From Lama glama (taxonomy: Eukaryota): a DNA stretch of 64,000 bases. The position numbers were made by a program, and so were the translations under genes. The notes beneath the pieces were generated by a model. That model did no database searches and was not told where the DNA came from. It saw nothing but the letters and a program-made list of their open reading frames with translations. Of the stretch, positions 5,629 through 61,300 are shown one piece after another; position 1 is the stretch's first letter; each line of letters begins with the position of its first letter. Location: positions 434,001-498,000 of the forward strand of contig CM052849.1 in NCBI GenBank assembly GCA_028534125.1, in the 5' to 3' direction.

Positions 5629-5764
5629 GGTGGGGAGAGTATAAGTCAGTGGTAGAGTGCATGCCTAGCATGCACAAGGTCCTGGGTTCAATCCCCTGTA
5701 CCTCCATTAAAAAATAAATAAGCCTAATTACCTACTCCTCTAGCAAAAATTTTTTTTTAAATGA
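5629..5764 (+). mobile_element. tRNA-Ala-derived SINE (vic-1-like, camelid) with a 17-bp target-site duplication
   Basis: tRNA-like head 5632-5706 with A box (TCAGTGGTAGAG) and B box (GGTTCAATCCC), then an AT-rich tail. Exact TSD AAAAATAATTAGGTTTA at 5612-5628 and 5765-5781. Confidence 0.88.
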
Positions 5765-8199
5765 AAAAATAATTAGGTTTATTCGTTATGTTAAGTTGCA
5801 CGAGAAGCACTGTCGAATGAGAAGAGGTGCGTAGCCTTCCCTAGGTGAACGTGTGCGGGTAAATGCTATTCACAGACGTATTTCAGAAGTTTGTCAGTGC
5901 TCTTGCTTCCCACGTGTCCGGGTACAACGCTATCACTCACAGCTCCACACTGAACGTGGTGTGTGTGCTGCAGGAACAGCCACATGGCCCTGTCAAGGGT
6001 GTTTTTATAACATACTCTCCCCAGCTCGTTAACCACAGCCACTTGGAGTCTTTCGTCATCTGCAGGTAATTCTGTTTCACTCTGATGCTTCTCCAAAGCA
6101 TCTGCAACGCAATGCAGGCCAGAGCACGTCCTCAGCCACAACAAGGGCCTGATTTGAGATGCACCACACGGGAAGGGCTGACCAGGGACCCCGATGGCAC
6201 CGCCCCACCGGCCTGACCAAGGGTCCCAGTGCAGAGACCAATGGGCTCATGAGCTGCGAACCAAAGATAAGGCAGAACAGAAACGGACAAGACTGAGTGC
6301 ACTGAAAAAGGACGACTGGAATTTTTCGTGACTTTTGTTTAGAATACCGTTGGCTCTTTAACGTTCCCTTTTCTTGATATTAAAAAAAAAAACCCATCCT
6401 CTTCTCTCTTAAGCGAGCTATGACTCATAAAAATCTAGTAAGTTATATTTCTGTAAACAAAATTGAAGCATTTATCTTTTTCTCCCTGTCTGATCCTCCA
6501 AAAATCAGAAACTACATTGTGTATTGCTATATTGCACATAAATAGTGATCTGCATAGTTTAACAAGACTGCCCTCCTCGTGACAGGACATGATTGAAAAC
6601 CCTGGTTGTATTACCAAGGAATGTCATGAATGAAAATGACTCATAGAGGAACTGTGGTCACTTTCTGAAGCAAAGGCTTACAAAGCCCTCTGGGAAAATC
6701 CGGCCTGGTGCCCGGCATCCAAGGTCCTCAGCCTTCCAGTGAGCAAGGAAGGTCACCTCCTGCAGCCCAGGAACCCTGGGATATTGGGGGGCCTTGACAA
6801 GACAGGAATTCACCCGCGTCTGCAAGTGAAGTTGATGGCAAGTTCTTGGATCGACCTCCCACGGTGGAAGGTTTTAAACGCGCATCTGAGATTTCCCTAT
6901 CTAAGCTTCCAGAGACCAGCTGAGAAAGGGCTGGAAGTCAGTCACCATTCTTGCTGCACGCATGGAAGTTATCAGCCTTGCCTAATAAGACCAGAACTAT
7001 TTTGTAAACAAGGATATTCTTCCTTTGATGATCCCTGATCAAAAAGGGAAATGACAGCAGAGAGAGATTCTGGCTCAGTGGAGAATATAATACTCTCGTG
7101 GGCCACTGGAGCCCAGCCCCGCCGGCATCTCTGAGGCCCTGTTGGCCACCTGTGACCTGGACTGCGTCCTGCCACCTGCCGTGCTTGGTCAGCCCTCCCT
7201 CCCCAAACCTCTGACTCTTTCCGCCTCCTCGAGGACCCAGTACAACTCTCCAAATTGTTGCTCTCCATTTCCCTCCCTCCCAGCTTGGTGTCCCTGAGAA
7301 CTAAAATCTGGCCGCCAGACCCTTCCCGGGACTCAGCTGTCCTGTAGCTCCCCTTCGTCTCCAGGGTCTGGAAAAGCTCTGGAAGCTGAGGCCAGACAAG
7401 GTGGCGGGAAAGTCCGAGAACTCACCACCCAGCACGTGGGGGCCACTGCAGAACCCCCCTAGGGTTCCCACATCTCCCGGGCTCTGCTCTGGGACACAGA
7501 TGTCTATGCCGTCACCAGTCACACCACACACCTGGAAAGCCCGCGAGCGGCCTGCCACTGTTACCTCATGCCACCACCTAGAGACACTCAGAGCTCAGTG
7601 TCTTCCCGACGCCGTCCCAGGACTCAAAACCACTCACTAAGGAGACTCCCTCCCTCTGATCCCCCTTCTCCACCAGGCCTGACAGTAGAAACACTAAGGG
7701 TGGCGCCTCACAGTACTTCCCTAAAATGCCGCAGCTCCCCAGGGTGACTGCCTGACCACACTCATGGCTTCCAAAAGGGAAAAAGCCAAATTCTACAGGT
7801 GCCAGTTAGCAAGCCCCGGCCGGTGTTCCAGGGACCCACGCCTCTTCCCTCTTTTTGTAAATTTTCACTCCCCCTCTCAAGCCCAGATGCACCCCCACCC
7901 CCACCCTCCCTTTAAAAGGCCCAGTCACCTCTGAGCAGGGCTGGAGGGGGCTCAGGTCTCTCGTGTCCTGGGTAGTCAGTGTCCACTTTGTTTACCGGAC
8001 CCCACTCTGCAGGCCAGCCCTTTGGAGCCCCTCCAGGAGTGGAGGCAGAGGAGCTCAGGGAAACAGGCTGGGAAAACCTGAAAGGCTGGTTTGGGGCAGA
8101 TCTTTCCTGATGGAGGTGGCCACACCCCTGAAGGAAAGGCCCAGGGACCCCAGGGCCTGCCAGTAGGAGCCATCTCCAGCTGAGCCCCACCCAGTTCTC

Positions 8200-40669: not shown

Positions 40670-40736
40670 ATGCCAGCCCATGACGACCTGGGCAGAAACC
40701 CCACCGTGGGCTGCCCTCGTCCGAGCCCCCTGGCAT
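40670..40736 (+). promoter_or_regulatory. SECIS element
   Basis: Helix I ATGCCAG (40670-76) pairs with CTGGCAT (40730-36). Core ATGA at 40680-83 with GA at 40723-24. Helix II GAC..GGGCAG/CTGCCC..GTC. Apical AAA at 40696-98 with a CCCAC/GTGGG mini-stem (type 2). Confidence 0.93.
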
Positions 40737-50149: not shown

Positions 50150-51350
50150 GTCCCCGAGGCACGAGGTCCTGGGGTGGCTTCCCCCTGCTGCGTGGGCACC
50201 GCGAGAACGCGGGGCGGAAGCAGGGGCCGCGCACGGAGGGCATCAGCTCCCCCGGCACCGGCCTTCCTAGTGTCGGGGTGCAGCCTCGCTGGGTGAGCGG
50301 CGCCCACGGCGAGGGAGCCGGGCCCACAGGGGACAGTCTCCGGGCCACCCTTCCCTGTCGCTCCTGGGCGGCAGGTGCGCAGCCCGGGCCCCAGGCAGGT
50401 CTCCAGCGAGGCGCACTCGGCGAGCACACCGGCCGGTGAGCGCTGTAGCCCCTGAGTGACCAACCCTGTCTGGTGCCCTCGGCCCCCAGCACCCCTCTTG
50501 ACGCTCAGAAGGAACTCAGGGCAGTGACCTGGGGTGAACCAGGTGGGCGCCACAGCCACTCGTCAGTTAACCAGCCCTCAGCGCCAGGCCTCGCCTTGCG
50601 CCTGCGCGCGCGGCCCCGCCCGCCGGACGGACACAGCCCTCCCCGCGCCTGCGCCTGCTCGCGCGGCCCCGCCCTCTCTCGGGGCACTCGGCGCGGCGTC
50701 GGGCCCGGCGCGCTCCCATCGCCCCCCGCGCCACACTGCCCCGCTGTCAGGGCTCGGAAGCGCCTGCGCGATCGCGTCCCCAAGGCGCACGGCGCAGGCG
50801 CGGCTCGGCCGGTAGCCCAGCGTGGGGCGAGCCGGGGTCCGGCGCGGGAACGTACGGGACGGCGGCGCGCACGCAGGGGGCGTGGCCGCGCGACACGGCC
50901 GGCGGAGAGTCGGGCTGCTCTCTCCGGGCGTCGTTAACTGCGGCCGGAGGGTCAGTGGGGCAGGGTCTCCGCCTTTCGGTCCCTTCCTGACTCCCGGTCC
51001 GCGCCGGGACTGTGCGCTTCGAGCCTCCTACCGGGCCTGGCGTCGCCTCACGGCGGCCGGTCTCGTCCGCTTTGTAGGTGCGCTCGGGCTCGCCGTCGAG
51101 GGAGCCGGGCCGTCGTGGCCGGACCTTGCGCGGCCGCAGGTAAGTGGGCTTCGAGCCGCGGCGCGTGACCCCTGGCCCGCGGGTCCGAGTCCGGGTCGGG
51201 GTCGCGGGAGCACACTCCCCCTTCGGGGGATGGCTGAGGACCCCGCTCCCTGAAGTAGCGAGAGCTGGGCGGGTCCGTCCTGGGAGGGAGGGCGTCGGCA
51301 CGCGGGCGCGCGTGGTCAGTCACCACCTCACCTCGCGGATGGCAGGAGCG
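50150..51350 (+). promoter_or_regulatory. CpG-island promoter of GNB1L/RTL10
   Basis: Dense CpG; several NRF1-like GCGCCTGCGC/GCGCAGGCGC motifs (~50597, 50645, 50760, 50792); synteny with RTL10 just downstream. Confidence 0.85.
51000..51139 (+). other. GNB1L: GNB1L/RTL10 non-coding exon 1 (5' end approximate); no GNB1L coding exons found in the window
   Basis: Consensus donor CAG|GTAAGT at 51139/51140 inside the CpG island. Identity rests on the conserved order COMT-TXNRD2-GNB1L/RTL10. Confidence 0.6.
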
Positions 51351-52971: not shown

Positions 52972-54209
52972 ATGCCTCAAGGCTGGTGCCGTCGGCAGGG
53001 CCCTCGCAATCCTATCTGGGTGGCAGCCAATTACGCCAGTGCATGCCTTTGGCAGCAGGTGGATGGGGCCTCTCCTGGGGTCACACATGCACCATTGGTG
53101 GATCTCTGGATCGAGCAGCCCTGCTGTGGGGACCTTGTGTGCGTGCGCACAACCACGGAGCAGATGAGCACAGCGGGCCCTGCTCCTGGCGGTAAGCCTA
53201 CAGAGAGTGGGCCCCCAGTGATGCGCATACTCTGCCCATGGCCCCCTCTGGGTGGACTTCCACTGGGTGCCCGACTCAGACCCAGGCACCTTCGATGGTT
53301 CCCCTTGGCTGCTGAACCGCTTCTTGGCCCAGCTGGGTGATTTCATGTCCTTCCACTTTGAGCACTACCAGGACAACCATGCCAGCCCTTTGGGCTTGAT
53401 TCTTGTGTGATACCTGCCTGGACCCCTGCCTCAGTGTTCACCACGTGTAATCTCTGTCCTGTGGGCTGGAAATTAAGGAAGGCTGCATGGAGGAGGCAGC
53501 TCCTTTCATTATCCAGTGTGAGGTTCTTGGGCGCCTGATGGGCCAGGCCTGGGCGTGGGCAGCCCCCTAGCTCAATGGGGACCTGCCCTTGCCTGACAAT
53601 TGTGAGCTCTTTTGCCAGGATCCTGAGGAAGTTATTTAAGCCCTGAACAACTTCGCTGAGTACCACGCTGCGGTTCCCCACCTTTTGACTCCGGCCTCGA
53701 GCCAGCCGCCCATAGCCCCGCAGCTGCCTGTGCTAAGACAGTACTTAGCTCGGTTCTCTGAGGCCCTGGCACTCAACGTGGGCTCTCCTCCCAGGCCTGT
53801 CCCAGCTGCTCTGGCCACCTCTGCTGTTTGTAGTTCTGACTCCACATCCAGAGATGCTCTGTCCAAGCAGCAGCTAGCCACGGAGAGCAGCCTTAGGCCC
53901 GCGGAGCCTCCTACCTGGTCCAGTTCTGCATGCAACACCGTTCCTGGTCCTGGGGGGTCAGCTTCCTCCCAGCCAGGGGTGGTGGCCTCCAGACTTCCCT
54001 GCCCTTACAGAGTCTACTAAACCCTCTGCCCAGAAACCAGGTCCCGCTCACCCAAGGGGTCCAGAACGCCAGAAAACACAGGAGGTCTCTGAGACAGAGG
54101 GAGACCAGGAGGCACCCTTAGGTACCCCACAGAGGGCAGTGGACGCCTCGGAGACCCCAAGAGAGCCACCATGTCCTCCCGTGCCCCAGCCCACAGCCCT
54201 GGATTCTGA
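52972..54209 (+). pseudogene. RTL10: RTL10 (C22orf29/BOP, retrotransposon Gag-like 10), disrupted
   Basis: [22 protein letters not shown]... then, across frames, [105 protein letters not shown] and [14 protein letters not shown]...SPGF*. These are collinear with recalled human RTL10. Likely acceptor at 52738. Confidence 0.88.
53377..53522 (+). repeat. 146-bp direct repeat, copy 1 (inserted in the RTL10 CDS)
   Basis: Identical by eye to 54649-54794. Confidence 0.95.
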
Positions 54210-54648
54210 ATGTGCAGGTACAGCAGTGCCCTCTCATGATGAAGTGGCCTGCATAGCCAAGGAGCCCCCAGCCCCCTGTCAGGACAGTGGCATTGCCAGA
54301 TGACTGTAGATGTAGCACCAGGTGTCTCTCTGTACACTTGCCCTGTTACTGGGCATTGGTGCACCTGTCTGAGCATACACGGCTCCTTAGCACCACACCC
54401 CCAGCACAGGAGGACACTGGCCTCTGTCCTGCCCCTCAGGCCCCAACTCCCCCAGTGGCCCAGAGGCTGCCTCCCCCCCAGCTCTCAGCTACATCTTCAC
54501 ATCTTATTGGGGAGTGCCGTCTCACCTGGCCTGTTCCCACTGGTCGATCATTTCCCCACCTGCTATTTGTACTGTCCTTGTGACTGTCTCCCTCCTTCCC
54601 CCCCAAAACTGACTTCCTTCCATGCTGGCTGGGACTGGACTGGGTCTG

Positions 54649-54794
54649 CCATGCCAGCCCTTTGGGCTTGATTCTTGTGTGATACCTGCCTGGACCCCTG
54701 CCTCAGTGTTCACCACGTGTAATCTCTGTCCTGTGGGCTGGAAATTAAGGAAGGCTGCATGGAGGAGGCAGCTCCTTTCATTATCCAGTGTGAG
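54649..54794 (+). repeat. 146-bp direct repeat, copy 2 (presumed donor, RTL10 3'UTR region)
   Basis: Identical by eye to 53377-53522; offset 1272 bp. Confidence 0.95.
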
Positions 54795-57599
54795 TAGGGT
54801 GTCTTGGCAGAGGAGGGCGCTTCCCTGTGGGCCTCCTGGCATCCCTGCCTCACAAGAAGGCTTGGACACAGGGAGGTGTGGTGGGCACCTCCTTGCCAGA
54901 CCAGCTCCTCCCAGGCGTTTGCCCTGCTGTAGGAGCTTCTAGTCATGCCGGGTCTTCAGGAGGCGGCCCGGGCCTGTGCTGCCCTCCCTCCTGCTCTCCA
55001 GCAGTCCTGCTCCCCTGCCCGTGTGTGCATGGCTTATGTCACTGCTCAGACCCCAACACAGTAATGACTCATGTCTCTGGGTAGACTGAGCTCTAGGGCA
55101 GGGGCTCTCCCTCAGTCAGCTTTGTGCTCCTGGTACACAGTCGGTGCTCATTAAATGTGTGTGAGCCCATGGCTGAGCTGTGGTGTGGTGGCTGCTGACT
55201 GAGCAGAGTCCTTGCCCATCATCAGGAGCAGAGGCCTAGGCCCCAGTGCCCAGTCAGCGTTGCACGTGTGATTTCTGATGGGGGCTTGGAGCATCGCAGG
55301 GTCTGGCTGAAGGGGTTGGGACAGAGTGGGTGGGAGTAGGAGGCTCGGTGGGGGCAGTGTGGCTAGAGGTCGAGTGGGGAGTAAGCAGTGGACCAGAACT
55401 GTGGGGCTGCAGGGCCAGAGGGCTGGGGTGGAGAAGGGCTCACCCTGCACGGGGCAGGTTTCCTAATGACCAGTGAGGTCAGCACCGGACAGACACAGTG
55501 CCCCTGCACAGAGGGCAGGTAGGCAAGCATTTCCAGTCCATTTGGGTTTTGCAATTGTGGAAACAAAGCAGAGCACCTTTTTGGAAAGTAGGAGGGAAAC
55601 ATAAGTGGAAATGTGAACTGCAACTGAAACGATTCATTTTAGGAAAAACAGTAACAAGTGGGTAAAACGTTTTAAGTCAAATAGATATCTTTGGGATTAT
55701 TTCATTCAGTAGTTTGCTGGAAAAGGCCCTGGGTCCGGGTGGTGTTACTTGAGAGTTACTCTAAGGCTCAGACATCCAGTAAGTACAGCACTTGTAGCTG
55801 TGCATCTTGGAAAGACTCTTAGGCGGCGGTGGCTTTTACTGATCAGGTGTGAGATCTGGACGGTCCTGCCCAGCCTGGTCGCACTGCTGCCCCCGTGCTG
55901 TCACTCAGGCCCGGCCCTCCTGTGGGTCCAGGGTTGTTGGCAATGTCAGGACTCTTGTCTGAGCTGGTGAGATGCCTCTGGCCACAGAGCCTGGAGCCGC
56001 CCTCGGACAGACACCCAGTCAGCGCCCCTCTGCCCAGCCTGCCCTTTCTGCTTCCACTTAGTGGACCTGGAGTGAATTCCTTCAGCTCGAGATTGTCCTC
56101 TTCCCTGGTGACTCCTGGGCCTCTTGGGACCTGTCCTCCCAGACAGCTCCTGGGGCCTGGGTTGTGGTAGCACACCTCTCCTGAGGGCTGGCTCTGCGGG
56201 ACTGGCCTGAGGGGACTTGGGCAGAGACCAGACAGATGGCCTGTGAAGAACAGATCCTGCCATCGGGCCTGCACCATGAAGGGAGGGGCAGGAGGGCAGG
56301 CTTGGTGGCCAGGCTGTAGGCTGCCCATTCCAGGGTGCCTGCGTGGTGCAGTCAGGGGAGTCTGGAAGGGAGCTGTGCCCTGCCTTTGGACAGAGGTGAT
56401 GACCCACCTGCTTTCCCCTTGTCGGGGGGAGGAGCACACGGCCAGGAGTGAGCCCTGCGCGCACGGTGGCAGGAAGGCCCTTGGGTCATTCCCTACTCTT
56501 GGCTCTGCACAGGCAGGCAGGCAACCCGGGGGTCGGTGCTCTAGGGACACAATGCCTGGCAGGGTTTGCTGGGTGTGCTCAGGGTGGGCTGGGGTGTTGG
56601 GGCCTGCTTTCCAGATGGTCGTGTCTGTCCCTCACTCCCTTGGAAATACCCGGAGGTTTCATTTCCTAAAGCTACGACACGGGGCACTGTGGGAGGGCTT
56701 TTGAAGCACCTGACTCCACGGAAAATTCTATGTCTGGAAGTATGGAGGATGAGGTCCTGTTTTGTATCTCACATTTTTTTAAAGCTGCAAGAATGAGAGG
56801 ACTTCGAAATCGGTGTGGACAGATGAGCAGCGGAGGACGGAGAACTCTGAGATAAAGTCAAACGAACAGAGGGATTTCGTTCACACACGTGGTGCTGCTC
56901 CTTATTAACGGGGGTAGGGTGGACCATTCTACGAAAAGAACTGGAGCAACGGGTCAGTCACCGGGAACAGTGACACCGGGCACCTGCCTCTACCAGCCAT
57001 ACTCTGGGACAGAGTTAATGTTAAAAAGTCTTAAAAGTACACAGGGAGATTGGGGGTGAACTGTTTCTCTGCTGTGATTCCAGAACTTGGATGTCCTAGG
57101 TGCCTGGGACTGCAGGAGGCGTGGAGGTGCTCTTTGGCACTGTTGGTGGGAGCATCACAGGCCAGGATTGGCCGTAGCAGCCGTGGGCCTGCCTGCGGAT
57201 GGATGCTGCTTGCTCTGTGGCGGCATTGACCTCCAAGCCATCGGAGTAGCTGGTCCTCACGGGGCGGGGGGGAGGGCCGAATGCCACCACGTTGTGCACT
57301 GGCCGGAGCCCCAGCAACTGTTAACAGCCCAGAGGTGCAGCGGGGAGGAGCAAGGTGACGGGGCTGCCGGGGCCGAGTTGTCAGGGTGGGCACCAGTACT
57401 GCAGAAAGGAACCTCCGGTGTCTCCGCAATCCCGTCCATCGCTGTCCCTCGGCCGACGTGGATGGTTCCTCCGGACACATCCCTCCACCACTGTGAAGCA
57501 CAGGTGGTGCGCTTGACTGCCCCGTCTAGCGGCCCAAGAAGCCTCTGCCCCTTTCGTGAGCACTGATCTCCACAGGTGGGTGGGCTCTCAGCATGGCCC

Positions 57600-58365: not shown

Positions 58366-61300
58366 ACCCTGCTTCACCTCCCCACAGGGCACGGGCTGCC
58401 AGCATCAGGCTGGTGCTAGGCTGGCTGCACCTGTCCCTGGTGCCCTGCCCTGTACATGCCTGGCTCTCTGGTCTGGCCTGTCCCCACTAATTAAGTGGCT
58501 CTATACTGAGTCTTCATTATCTGATAGAGAAACACCACCCCTCTACCCTTGTTCTGCAAATCATCTTAGCAGGTTTTTGCAACATGTTTTATCCCAAACA
58601 CAGAGTGAGAGGGTGGGACAGGGGACCACGGTGTGGCCGTCACCCAGCTCTAGGGGTGGTCAGCCCTCACCCTGGGGGCACCGTGTTGCTGGACTGCCTA
58701 GCCCAGCACGATGTCTGGGATGGCAGGCGCCCTGAGCTCACTGTCTCTCTGGGCTATAGATGGGTGGTCTGTTCCAGGGCATGAAGGGTGAGCCAGGGAT
58801 GAGCCCCTGGCCTGCAGGGCACCCTGTTCCTTGTCCTCCTGCTTTGGGGGTGCTCGTCCACCTGCCCAGCACCCTGTCTCCCCATTGGCGGGGCCGTCCG
58901 AAGGCAGGGAGGGACGTCTCTGGGCTGCTCTCCACCCATGGTCTGGGCAGGGAGCCTGGGCCAGTGGTCAGGAGTGAGCCCACGCCCTGCCTGGTGGGTG
59001 CCACTCTTCATGGCTGAAGTGTGGCTGCTGCGTGACAGCCCAGACCCCTGCTCCTCCCCGCTGTGCCTCTGGGCTGTTAGCCCCAGGAGACAGCAAGCTC
59101 AGCATTCCTGCCAGCCAGAGACTCTGCTAGGCCAGGCAGACTAGTGACACGGTGCCCCCAGGGCGAGGGCTGACCACTGTGCCACCACACCACGTGGTGG
59201 CATTTGTCTCTCTCACCCTCCTGTGAGGAGAGACAACTGTGGCTGCTGGAAGCGCCACATTGCCCCCCACGAGTCCTCGGGCAGACTCTCCACTGTATAC
59301 TTCTATGCCGTAGGCAAGGCTTTCTAAAGGCCATGTGTGGGTGGGGAGGTGGGAGGCCCATGAGGGCCTGCAGGGTAGGGATCCAAGAGGCACGGGCTTG
59401 GCCAGGCACCTGGTCAGTGTGCTGTCCCCTGGGGCACAGCAGCCTCACCACCTTGGCCCAGTGATCTCCAATGACAGGGTGCAAAGGGGCTTCAGGTGGT
59501 GGCACCTGGGAGGGTGGCCTGGGCCAGTGCGGTTTTGCCCCTGCGCCTGCCATGGCCTCCCGGTCCCTTCATTGTCCCCCAACTCCCAGCAAGTTGCTGA
59601 ACTTCTCCAAGCCTCTCTCTTGCCTCCTGTAAACTGGAGAGAGTCTGCCTCAGGGCTGCGCCCTGCCCACCGTCCCTCCCGTGAGGTCAGTGTGAGTGTA
59701 CGTGTACCAGACAGGTGTGGGCACGGTGCACAACTGGGGATGTGTGGTGCATCCCTGGGCGTGTTCCCCACTCGAGGTGGCCTCTGCCACAGGAGCAGCC
59801 ACTTGCACCCCGGAAGAACATGCCCCCCAGCACCACCCTTAGGGGCCCCCTGGCACCAGCCCCTGGGAGCATTGTCTGGGTGCAGCCGTCAGCACTAGGC
59901 AGCTGGCCCCAGTGGACCAGACCTCCTGGAGGAAGTGGCCCCAGAAGCTGGCAGTAGCCCTAGGATGGTCACGTTTCCTGTAAAACTCGGAGCTCTTCCC
60001 CAGGAGCAAGCAGGCCGCAGCCTCTTGTTGGCCCAGGTCCCACCCCTGCCCGTAAGTGCCACAGGCCGACTGAAAACGCCCAGTGGGCTTCCTTCCTGCC
60101 ATCCCCAGGCTCCATGGACCCGGCAGCCCTCACCCTGGTGTTTCCTCTCAGCCCAGCCAGGACGCCCGTCCCCCAGTCCCAAGGAGTCCCACTCGCAGCT
60201 CAGTGCCCGCAGCTGCAGGAAGCACCTCTCACACCTCGTGTGTTCACGCCTTGCCCGCCACGCGAGGCTCCAGGAGGCTCACTGCTGCTGTGGTGGTGGC
60301 GGGTTAGGGGAGGTCGGGTGCGGTGGGCTGGTGGGAGGGGCCTACTCAGCTCTGCCCGTGCACCCAGTGCAGCACGTGGACCTTGACCCCCAAAGAGGAG
60401 CCTGGTCCCAGGAGTCTGCCCTCTGCTGTGTTCTTCCCCAAACGCGGGGGCAAGTCAGGAGGGGCGCACAAAGCCCCAAGGGGCTCCACGGGATTCAGCT
60501 GCCCCGGGGGGCCTGGGATGCTGCCCTAGGGAGGTGAGGTCGGTGCCGCTGCTGCTTGGGGTGTGGGGCCTGCTGGAGAGGCAGTGTCCCCTCCTGGGAG
60601 CCGGAAGCAGCCCAGCTTTGTGGGAGAAGTGACTTGCTTCTCTTGGATGGAATACGAGGCTCGGGCCCAGGACGAGGGGGTGGGTGGCCATCTTCCCTGG
60701 GGTCTTCAGGAGCACAGCACCCGGCTGCACCCCAAAAACCGTGTACATAGCTGTCCTCTGAGTTCGCTGTGCAGTTCACAGGTCACAGGGAGATGCCCTG
60801 CCCACGAGGGGCCCAGGCTGGGCTTGGGAGTCTTCCCTGTGCCCCCAGAACAGCCGGCACCAGGCCTGCCAGCCCCGGGCCCAGCACAGTCAGGCACCAC
60901 TGAGGCTGCCCCCCAGCTGCTGGGCAACACTGTGCCAGAGGCAGGCAGGCCTGGGACCCCACCCCCAGGAGCACACAGAGGTACATCAGGGCCGGGGGAG
61001 GTGGGAAGGGCCTGTCCTGGGGAAGGCGGTACAGGGATGGCGCCCGGTTCCCTGTCCGCACTGGGCTCTGAGGCCCGCAGTGCACAGGGCTGCCTGTGGC
61101 ACCGTCCCCCCCCCACATCCCCCCCACCCCCACCCTGGGATGGGATCTCCATCTTTGAAGCCACGGATACTGACAGAGGATTCAATGAATCCAAGGTCGC
61201 CAGCCGGGCGTTGACAGATGCCCGGCCACGATTCTATTTCTGATTTAATAACCGAATGGGAGGCTGGCCCTCGGTAATAATTAGGGCTAATTACTGAGGA

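Follow-up and report, generated by a model that had tools for sequence, protein, structure and literature searches.

How did 146 bases come to stand twice, letter for letter, at the RTL10 locus of the llama, once within the coding sequence and once downstream of it? An initial annotation of the 64-kb stretch of Lama glama DNA analyzed here (the window) read the first copy as a recent insertion templated by the second. We examined the origin, age, and spread of this segment, along with the state of the gene that received it.

The copied segment and its host locus

Gene order in the region is TXNRD2 with a SECIS element, a CpG-rich promoter region, RTL10, and then WD40 exons 10-27 kb past the end of the window. 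A TXNRD2 exon was 98% identical to Vicugna pacos and Camelus ferus and at most 85% identical to the other 39 of 41 matches, which marks the genome as camelid. Known motifs and the human gene order lead us to take the WD40 exons as GNB1L. A common promoter is listed for human C22orf29 and GNB1L (PMC2568002). The main features of the neighborhood are as follows:

15724-39524 and 40672-40734 (+): thioredoxin reductase 2 exons, ending GC-TGA-G, with the SECIS downstream
52972-54300 (+): RTL10 (Bop, C22orf29) pseudogene, retrotransposon-gag-derived, located by tblastn with whale, bat, and squirrel RTL10 and by the names from protein searches
L004:9880-10000, L005:4240-4360, and L006:131-562 and 7151-7429 (+): WD40-protein exons past the window

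Several repeats were also observed in the window. A tRNA-derived SINE with an A-rich tail lies at 5632-5750 (+), and its head resembles the camelid Vic-1 family. An inverted pair of about 98 bases with 80% identity (58656-58753 and 59082-59177) has a further partial match at 57322-57366; these are probably old repeat copies. The GC-rich promoter region contains a 25-base direct repeat (96%; 50597-50621 and 50650-50674) with TGCGCCTGCGC-like words.

Self-matching upheld the annotated pair as a direct, nontandem duplicate. Bases 53377-53522 and 54649-54794 were identical at 146 of 146 positions in direct orientation, with the match ending at both edges; the copy starts are 1272 bases apart, 1126 unique bases separate the two copies, and no tandem array over the segment was found in the window. 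The pair was the sole 100% self-match within the window (E <= 1e-5; E = 9e-71 for the pair). A search of the llama's own genome (E <= 0.001, skipping very common words) covered 2.35 Gb in 1,072,352 pieces, with the window on a 21-Mb piece, and returned only two matches, which were the two copies; no second assembly of the region was found. A dispersed repeat as the source of the identity, which the initial annotation had named as a possible objection, was rejected on the basis of these two genome matches. The features of the duplication are:

53377-53522 (+): acceptor (derived) copy, 146 bases in place of about four codons, from the self-match and orthologue alignment
54649-54794 (+): donor (ancestral) copy, 3' of the RTL10 frame, from whale gene models
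53517-53522 (+): 6-base junction microhomology TGTGAG, present both at the donor end and in the Cys-Glu codons of RTL10

As a separate observation, 30 of 32 bases at 53469-53500 and its twin in copy 2 matched another locus in all four sequencing runs described below. We presume from its resemblance to the 3' end of ancient LINE-2 elements that the donor may contain an old repeat relic. Such a relic cannot account for a 100% local copy and was rejected as the source.

The insert is located between the QDN and CEV codons of RTL10, with TGTGAG serving both as the end of the copy and as the resumed codons, as annotated, except that the copy takes its first base from the Asn codon, whose C is at 53377. 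Left microhomology thus amounts to 1 base, or to 2 bases if C was also the first letter of the lost Leu codon. Four residues were indeed missing from the acceptor site, as the initial annotation had proposed, and their identity is LSRV or a close variant rather than the ISRV given there: this was found between DN and CE in 37 of 37 pattern-matching orthologues among the 46 RTL10 proteins fetched, none of them human; the other 9 were variant, incomplete, or read in a different frame. Provided that these four codons were still present in the camelid ancestor, the acceptor lost about 10-12 bases, and the net change was +127 bases and a frameshift. By sequence inspection, neither a polyA tract nor a target-site duplication was visible at either junction of 53377-53522, as annotated.

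Whale gene models identified the ancestral copy. Three of the 46 proteins, all of them whale models, carry the translation of the segment 3' of the RTL10 frame: fin whale P0002 and beluga P0069 place it downstream of the frame, and narwhal P0068 continues from the segment into the right flank of copy 2. Because these models read the segment downstream, and in the narwhal into the copy 2 flank, copy 2 is the donor, in line with the annotated direction of copying. At the protein level, the acceptor site was empty in whales, bats, and rodents; among metagenome contigs, 254 pattern matches for outgroup DNA gave none that was confirmed.

The finding of 0 differences in 146 bases limits pair divergence to at most 2.0% (95%) and agrees with the annotated recency of the event. 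At the rate of 2.2e-9 per site per year given in PMC2671141, a divergence of 2.0% equals 4.6 million years; at 1.4e-9 per site per year, derived from 7e-9 per five-year generation (PMC7331169), it equals 7.3 million years. Judged from sequence identity, the duplication would thus be younger than about 5-7 million years.

RTL10 itself is decayed. Its lesions are frame changes near 53243 and 53995, the insert, and two in-frame stops:

53568-53570 (+): in-frame stop TAG, Tyr in orthologues, with no other letter in four of four runs
53637-53639 (+): in-frame stop TAA, Gln in orthologues, with no other letter in four of four runs

No further RTL10 copy was found in the genome, indicating a single locus. 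Pfam searches of six window fragments returned no families, and intact whale RTL10 matches PF16297 at residues 90-174, a range covering the insertion site. Against 10 intact orthologues from whales, bats, and rodents (10 of the first 17 fetched), the pseudogene core showed 84-89% and 67-80% identity; those orthologues average 97% and 89.5% identity to each other. Loss of RTL10 coding capacity has occurred repeatedly in mammals, and only 3 of the 18 genomes in one survey retain an intact frame (PMC11011659); the pseudogenes described there, like the one here, carry frameshifts and stops in the capsid-derived frame. The passages of that survey considered here make no mention of the camelid RTL10 state or of the insert, and its figure 3D may list a camelid. 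We claim no protein product for the llama locus.

Independent sequencing runs and the likely empty allele

Among 24 public runs listed, 14 contained 0.92-0.98 of the sampled words and carried five organism labels. Four of these 14 were compared, all as contigs, over 53378-54640: X1 and X4 (label A, two samples), X6 (label B), and X14 (label E). Six RNA runs contained 0.14-0.27 of the sampled words and were not counted as evidence.

In all four runs, contigs crossed the right junction of copy 1 and both junctions of copy 2, and the segment assembled into its own 146-base unitig without a single letter difference. Relative to the single-copy mean, the depth of this unitig was 1.75-fold in X1, 2.16-fold in X4, 2.21-fold in X6, and 1.58-fold in X14. 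A single-copy segment would be expected as one continuous contig. The left junction of copy 1 is supported indirectly, by the 146-base unitig terminating exactly there, which implies a second neighbor. The insert is present in several animals under three organism labels and is not private to one assembly.

These data bear directly on whether the first copy is an assembly error or arose from a chimeric read, the objection that the initial annotation had tied to reads spanning copy 1. The genome assembly is of a short-read type in 1,072,352 pieces, the segment length is near the read length, and no run contained more than 0.98 of the sampled words, all of which would suit an artifact. The right junction and the raised depth were nonetheless recovered in four of four runs from four samples and four studies; misassembly was rejected on this evidence, and we give it next to no credence.

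We modeled k=31 unitig boundaries for seven genotypes. X1, X4, and X6 each yielded unitigs of 146 and 1186 bases, the exact prediction for two insertion alleles. X14 instead yielded unitigs of 146, 71, and 1145 bases, the 71-base unitig being at half depth with one differing letter:

53533-53533 (+): variant of the X14 insertion haplotype relative to the window, at half depth, marking a second insertion haplotype

With the variant on the insert side, this pattern was matched by only one of the seven modeled genotypes, an insertion allele paired with an empty allele. A heterozygous SNP on two insertion alleles predicts unitigs of 40, 61, 61, and 1145 bases, which were absent from X14. From its unitig boundaries and a depth of about 4 per allele, X14 is likely a heterozygote with an empty allele, a genotype reading that contig simplification could mislead. 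Should this reading hold, the insert is polymorphic and has existed long enough for two haplotypes to form. We accordingly hold the polymorphism that the initial annotation had suggested as probable, with the insert likely still segregating among closely related camelids.

Alternatively, the duplication could be older, with gene conversion or selection on a copied exon having preserved its perfect identity. The copies were indeed identical in the window and in four of four runs, as such maintenance would leave them. Against this, an apparently empty allele is still present in X14, and the compared animals differ at only 0-2 sites per 1.1-1.2 kb, so that the identity requires no conversion. We regard an older, maintained duplication as scarcely credible.

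The runs also address the order of events. The divergence of the pseudogene core is in excess of that among intact orthologues, set against 0 of 146 differences between the copies, and this excess cannot have accumulated after the insertion. Furthermore, both stops in X14 lie inside a full-depth unitig common to both alleles. These two lines of evidence agree with the annotated view that the insertion came later than the point lesions, and on both we rejected the insert as the inactivating lesion; RTL10 had decayed long before the insertion. The insert bounds the death of camelid RTL10 as earlier than the insertion, and with the gene already dead, the insert is likely neutral.

Probable templated repair and a candidate exon

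Taken together, the duplicate probably arose in one germline DNA-break repair that was templated by the nearby downstream DNA, a repair-mediated duplication. In this model, a break would have opened between the Asn and Cys codons, with 10-12 bases trimmed. The 3' end of the right arm would then have annealed via TGTGAG to the same word 1272 bases downstream, on a sister chromatid or in a loop, and 140 bases would have been synthesized from this downstream template. The new strand would finally have been released and joined to the left arm by 1-2 bases of microhomology, in an SDSA-like manner or by synthesis-dependent end joining. The annotated proposal of a templated, microhomology-linked insertion with a small deletion is supported to this extent; the product is identical under SDSA, polymerase-theta joining, and FoSTeS/MMBIR, and the sequence cannot choose among these pathways.

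Ten instances of TGTGAG or its complement lie within 5 kb, so that microhomology alone cannot account for the donor choice. Extended flank homeology was not significant, with 8.8% and 71% of random 20-mers scoring equally well. A G4-like motif lies at 53529-53559 (+), 7 bases from the right junction. Since 13.5% of the 50-58 kb interval is within 10 bases of such a motif, this proximity is not above background, and a G-quadruplex was rejected as the cause of the break.

Fork template switching of the FoSTeS/MMBIR type would give the same product without a two-ended break, by a jump of about 1.28 kb forward, copying of 146 bases, and a return at TGTGAG. The direct orientation, the two microhomology junctions, and the local donor all fit this pathway. 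The G4-like motif beside the right junction could be read in its favor, but against the background just given it carries no signal. No extra switches or clustered point changes were seen at the junction, and a return to no more than 10-12 bases from where the copying left off is the outcome expected of a two-ended break. We consider fork switching unlikely.

A two-step origin would involve a 1272-base tandem duplication at TGTGAG and then the loss of about 1.14 kb, with 146 bases remaining in duplicate. This history yields the same two junctions. It also needs the deletion to start within about 12 bases of the edge, roughly 1 in 100 by our own estimate, and the full tandem allele, expected to bring the 1186-base unitig to twice its depth, was absent from four of four runs. 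Such a sequence of events seems to us very unlikely. A future 1272-base deletion between the two copies, as foreseen by the initial annotation, is possible, but none was seen. The homologous recombination threshold in mammals is about 200 bases, and the 146 bases fall short of it.

The copied unit brackets a candidate exon with both splice sites, as predicted from exon joints in three whale protein models mapped on the window:

54707-54789 (+): candidate exon in the donor, with AG before 54707 and GTGAGT after 54789, from whale models
53435-53517 (+): duplicate of the candidate exon in the insert, with the same acceptor context and a donor site of GTGAGG, not GTGAGT

The whale models splice from window position 54218, the end of the RTL10 body, to 54707 (narwhal and beluga) or to 54658 (fin whale), the latter following an alternative acceptor in the donor copy, and two of the three exit at the donor site after 54789. 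The start of the copy precedes one acceptor by 9 bases, and its end lies 5 bases beyond the whale-model donor site. GTGAGG in copy 1 is weaker than GTGAGT, and GT[AG]AG words occur 24 times in 8 kb. Among 9 candidates, a region search for other proteins with the whale downstream exons gave P0002 only; the other two whale models with the segment came from a protein cluster list. Segments at 55002-55090, 55133-55162, and 55226-55303 form last exons in beluga, bat, and fin whale RTL10 models. The models suggest varied splicing of the RTL10 3' region.

The bracketed candidate exon raises the alternative of RNA-templated repair, in which the break would have been patched from a nascent RTL10/GNB1L transcript or from cDNA made on it. 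The copy is in sense orientation with ends near whale-model splice sites, and class 2 templated insertions have been proposed to derive from RNA (PMC5110952). Conversely, the intron bases before the acceptor are identical to the genome, no exon-exon joint or polyA is present, and an unspliced RNA would leave no mark beyond what DNA leaves. The right end is moreover fixed by TGTGAG, and it looks like a splice donor because this microhomology is itself a donor-like word. We find an RNA template highly improbable. It is very unlikely as well that a patch from a nascent transcript captured a whole working exon, splice sites included, with camelids now segregating for an extra copy of a conserved alternative exon in the RTL10/GNB1L transcription unit. 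Were the transcript-patch and exon-capture reading true, spliced forms with changed 5' or 3' untranslated regions would result, and the locus would offer a recent natural experiment, open to typing, on how repair gives rise to exons. The duplicated segment would matter more if spliced, as a polymorphic exon copy can be tested allele against allele.

Comparison with known duplication and insertion classes

Among the papers listed for RTL10, camelid pseudogenes, and repair-mediated duplication, no report of this locus was found, which is not proof of absence. Inserts made by polymerase theta or synthesis-dependent MMEJ tend to measure from a few bases to some tens of bases, with the template beside the break. 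The llama insert shares microhomology-primed synthesis, a local template, and a small deletion with these products, whereas 140 bases from 1.3 kb away is long for them. The features of L1-mediated retroposition and class 1 TSIPs (a polyA tail, a target-site duplication, and a TTTT/A site) were not found at the insert. Class 2 templated insertion polymorphisms (Onozawa and Aplan 2016, PMC5110952) also occur without a target-site duplication or polyA and, like the insert, are germline events with a microdeletion and microhomology; they are polymorphic, which is likely here. They differ in having a distant template, proposed to act via RNA, whereas the donor here lies at a distance of 1.3 kb and the insert bears no RNA mark.

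The closest known system is that of Pace, Sen, Batzer, and Feschotte (2009), who described 824 proximal repair-mediated duplications in human transposon remnants (PMC2671141), with 202 repair-mediated duplications in cow and 192 in dog and with camelids outside the survey. The 'doublets' of Thomas et al. 2004, cited in that report, are a related known system. The human cases have a median of 147 bp and a distance peak near 1,200 bp, which according to the authors may partly be an artifact of method; the llama pair measures 146 bp and 1272 bp. Microhomology of 2-9 nt and deletions of 1-15 nt are typical of the class, 9 of 39 proximal breakpoints combine microhomology with a small deletion exactly as seen here, and polyA was found in 0 of 39 inspected. 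As in that class, the segment is present in two copies only (at least 50 bp, in one other place), the donor lies more than 50 bp and less than 5 kb away, and no polyA/T tract or target-site duplication is visible; an outgroup empty site with an ancestral donor is likewise present, here at the protein level. Of 10 human loci typed, 1 was polymorphic, and identical pairs can be polymorphic (PMC2671141). Two differences stand out: acceptors in the human survey lie in transposon remnants by design, whereas the acceptor here is a dead domesticated gene, and a donor holding intron-exon-intron occurred in 2 of 824 human cases, with the exon here only a candidate.

The copy at 53377-53522 agrees with proximal repair-mediated duplications on every sequence criterion tested, and its size, distance, microhomology, and deletion lie near the center of the class. 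The rarity implied by the initial annotation is thus not supported, as the insert is a near-median case of a class described in 2009. It can be used as a presence/absence marker free of homoplasy for closely related camelids, a group with extensive hybridization (PMC7331169). The insert is otherwise one more repair scar, most likely neutral, in a class that has hundreds of members per mammalian genome.
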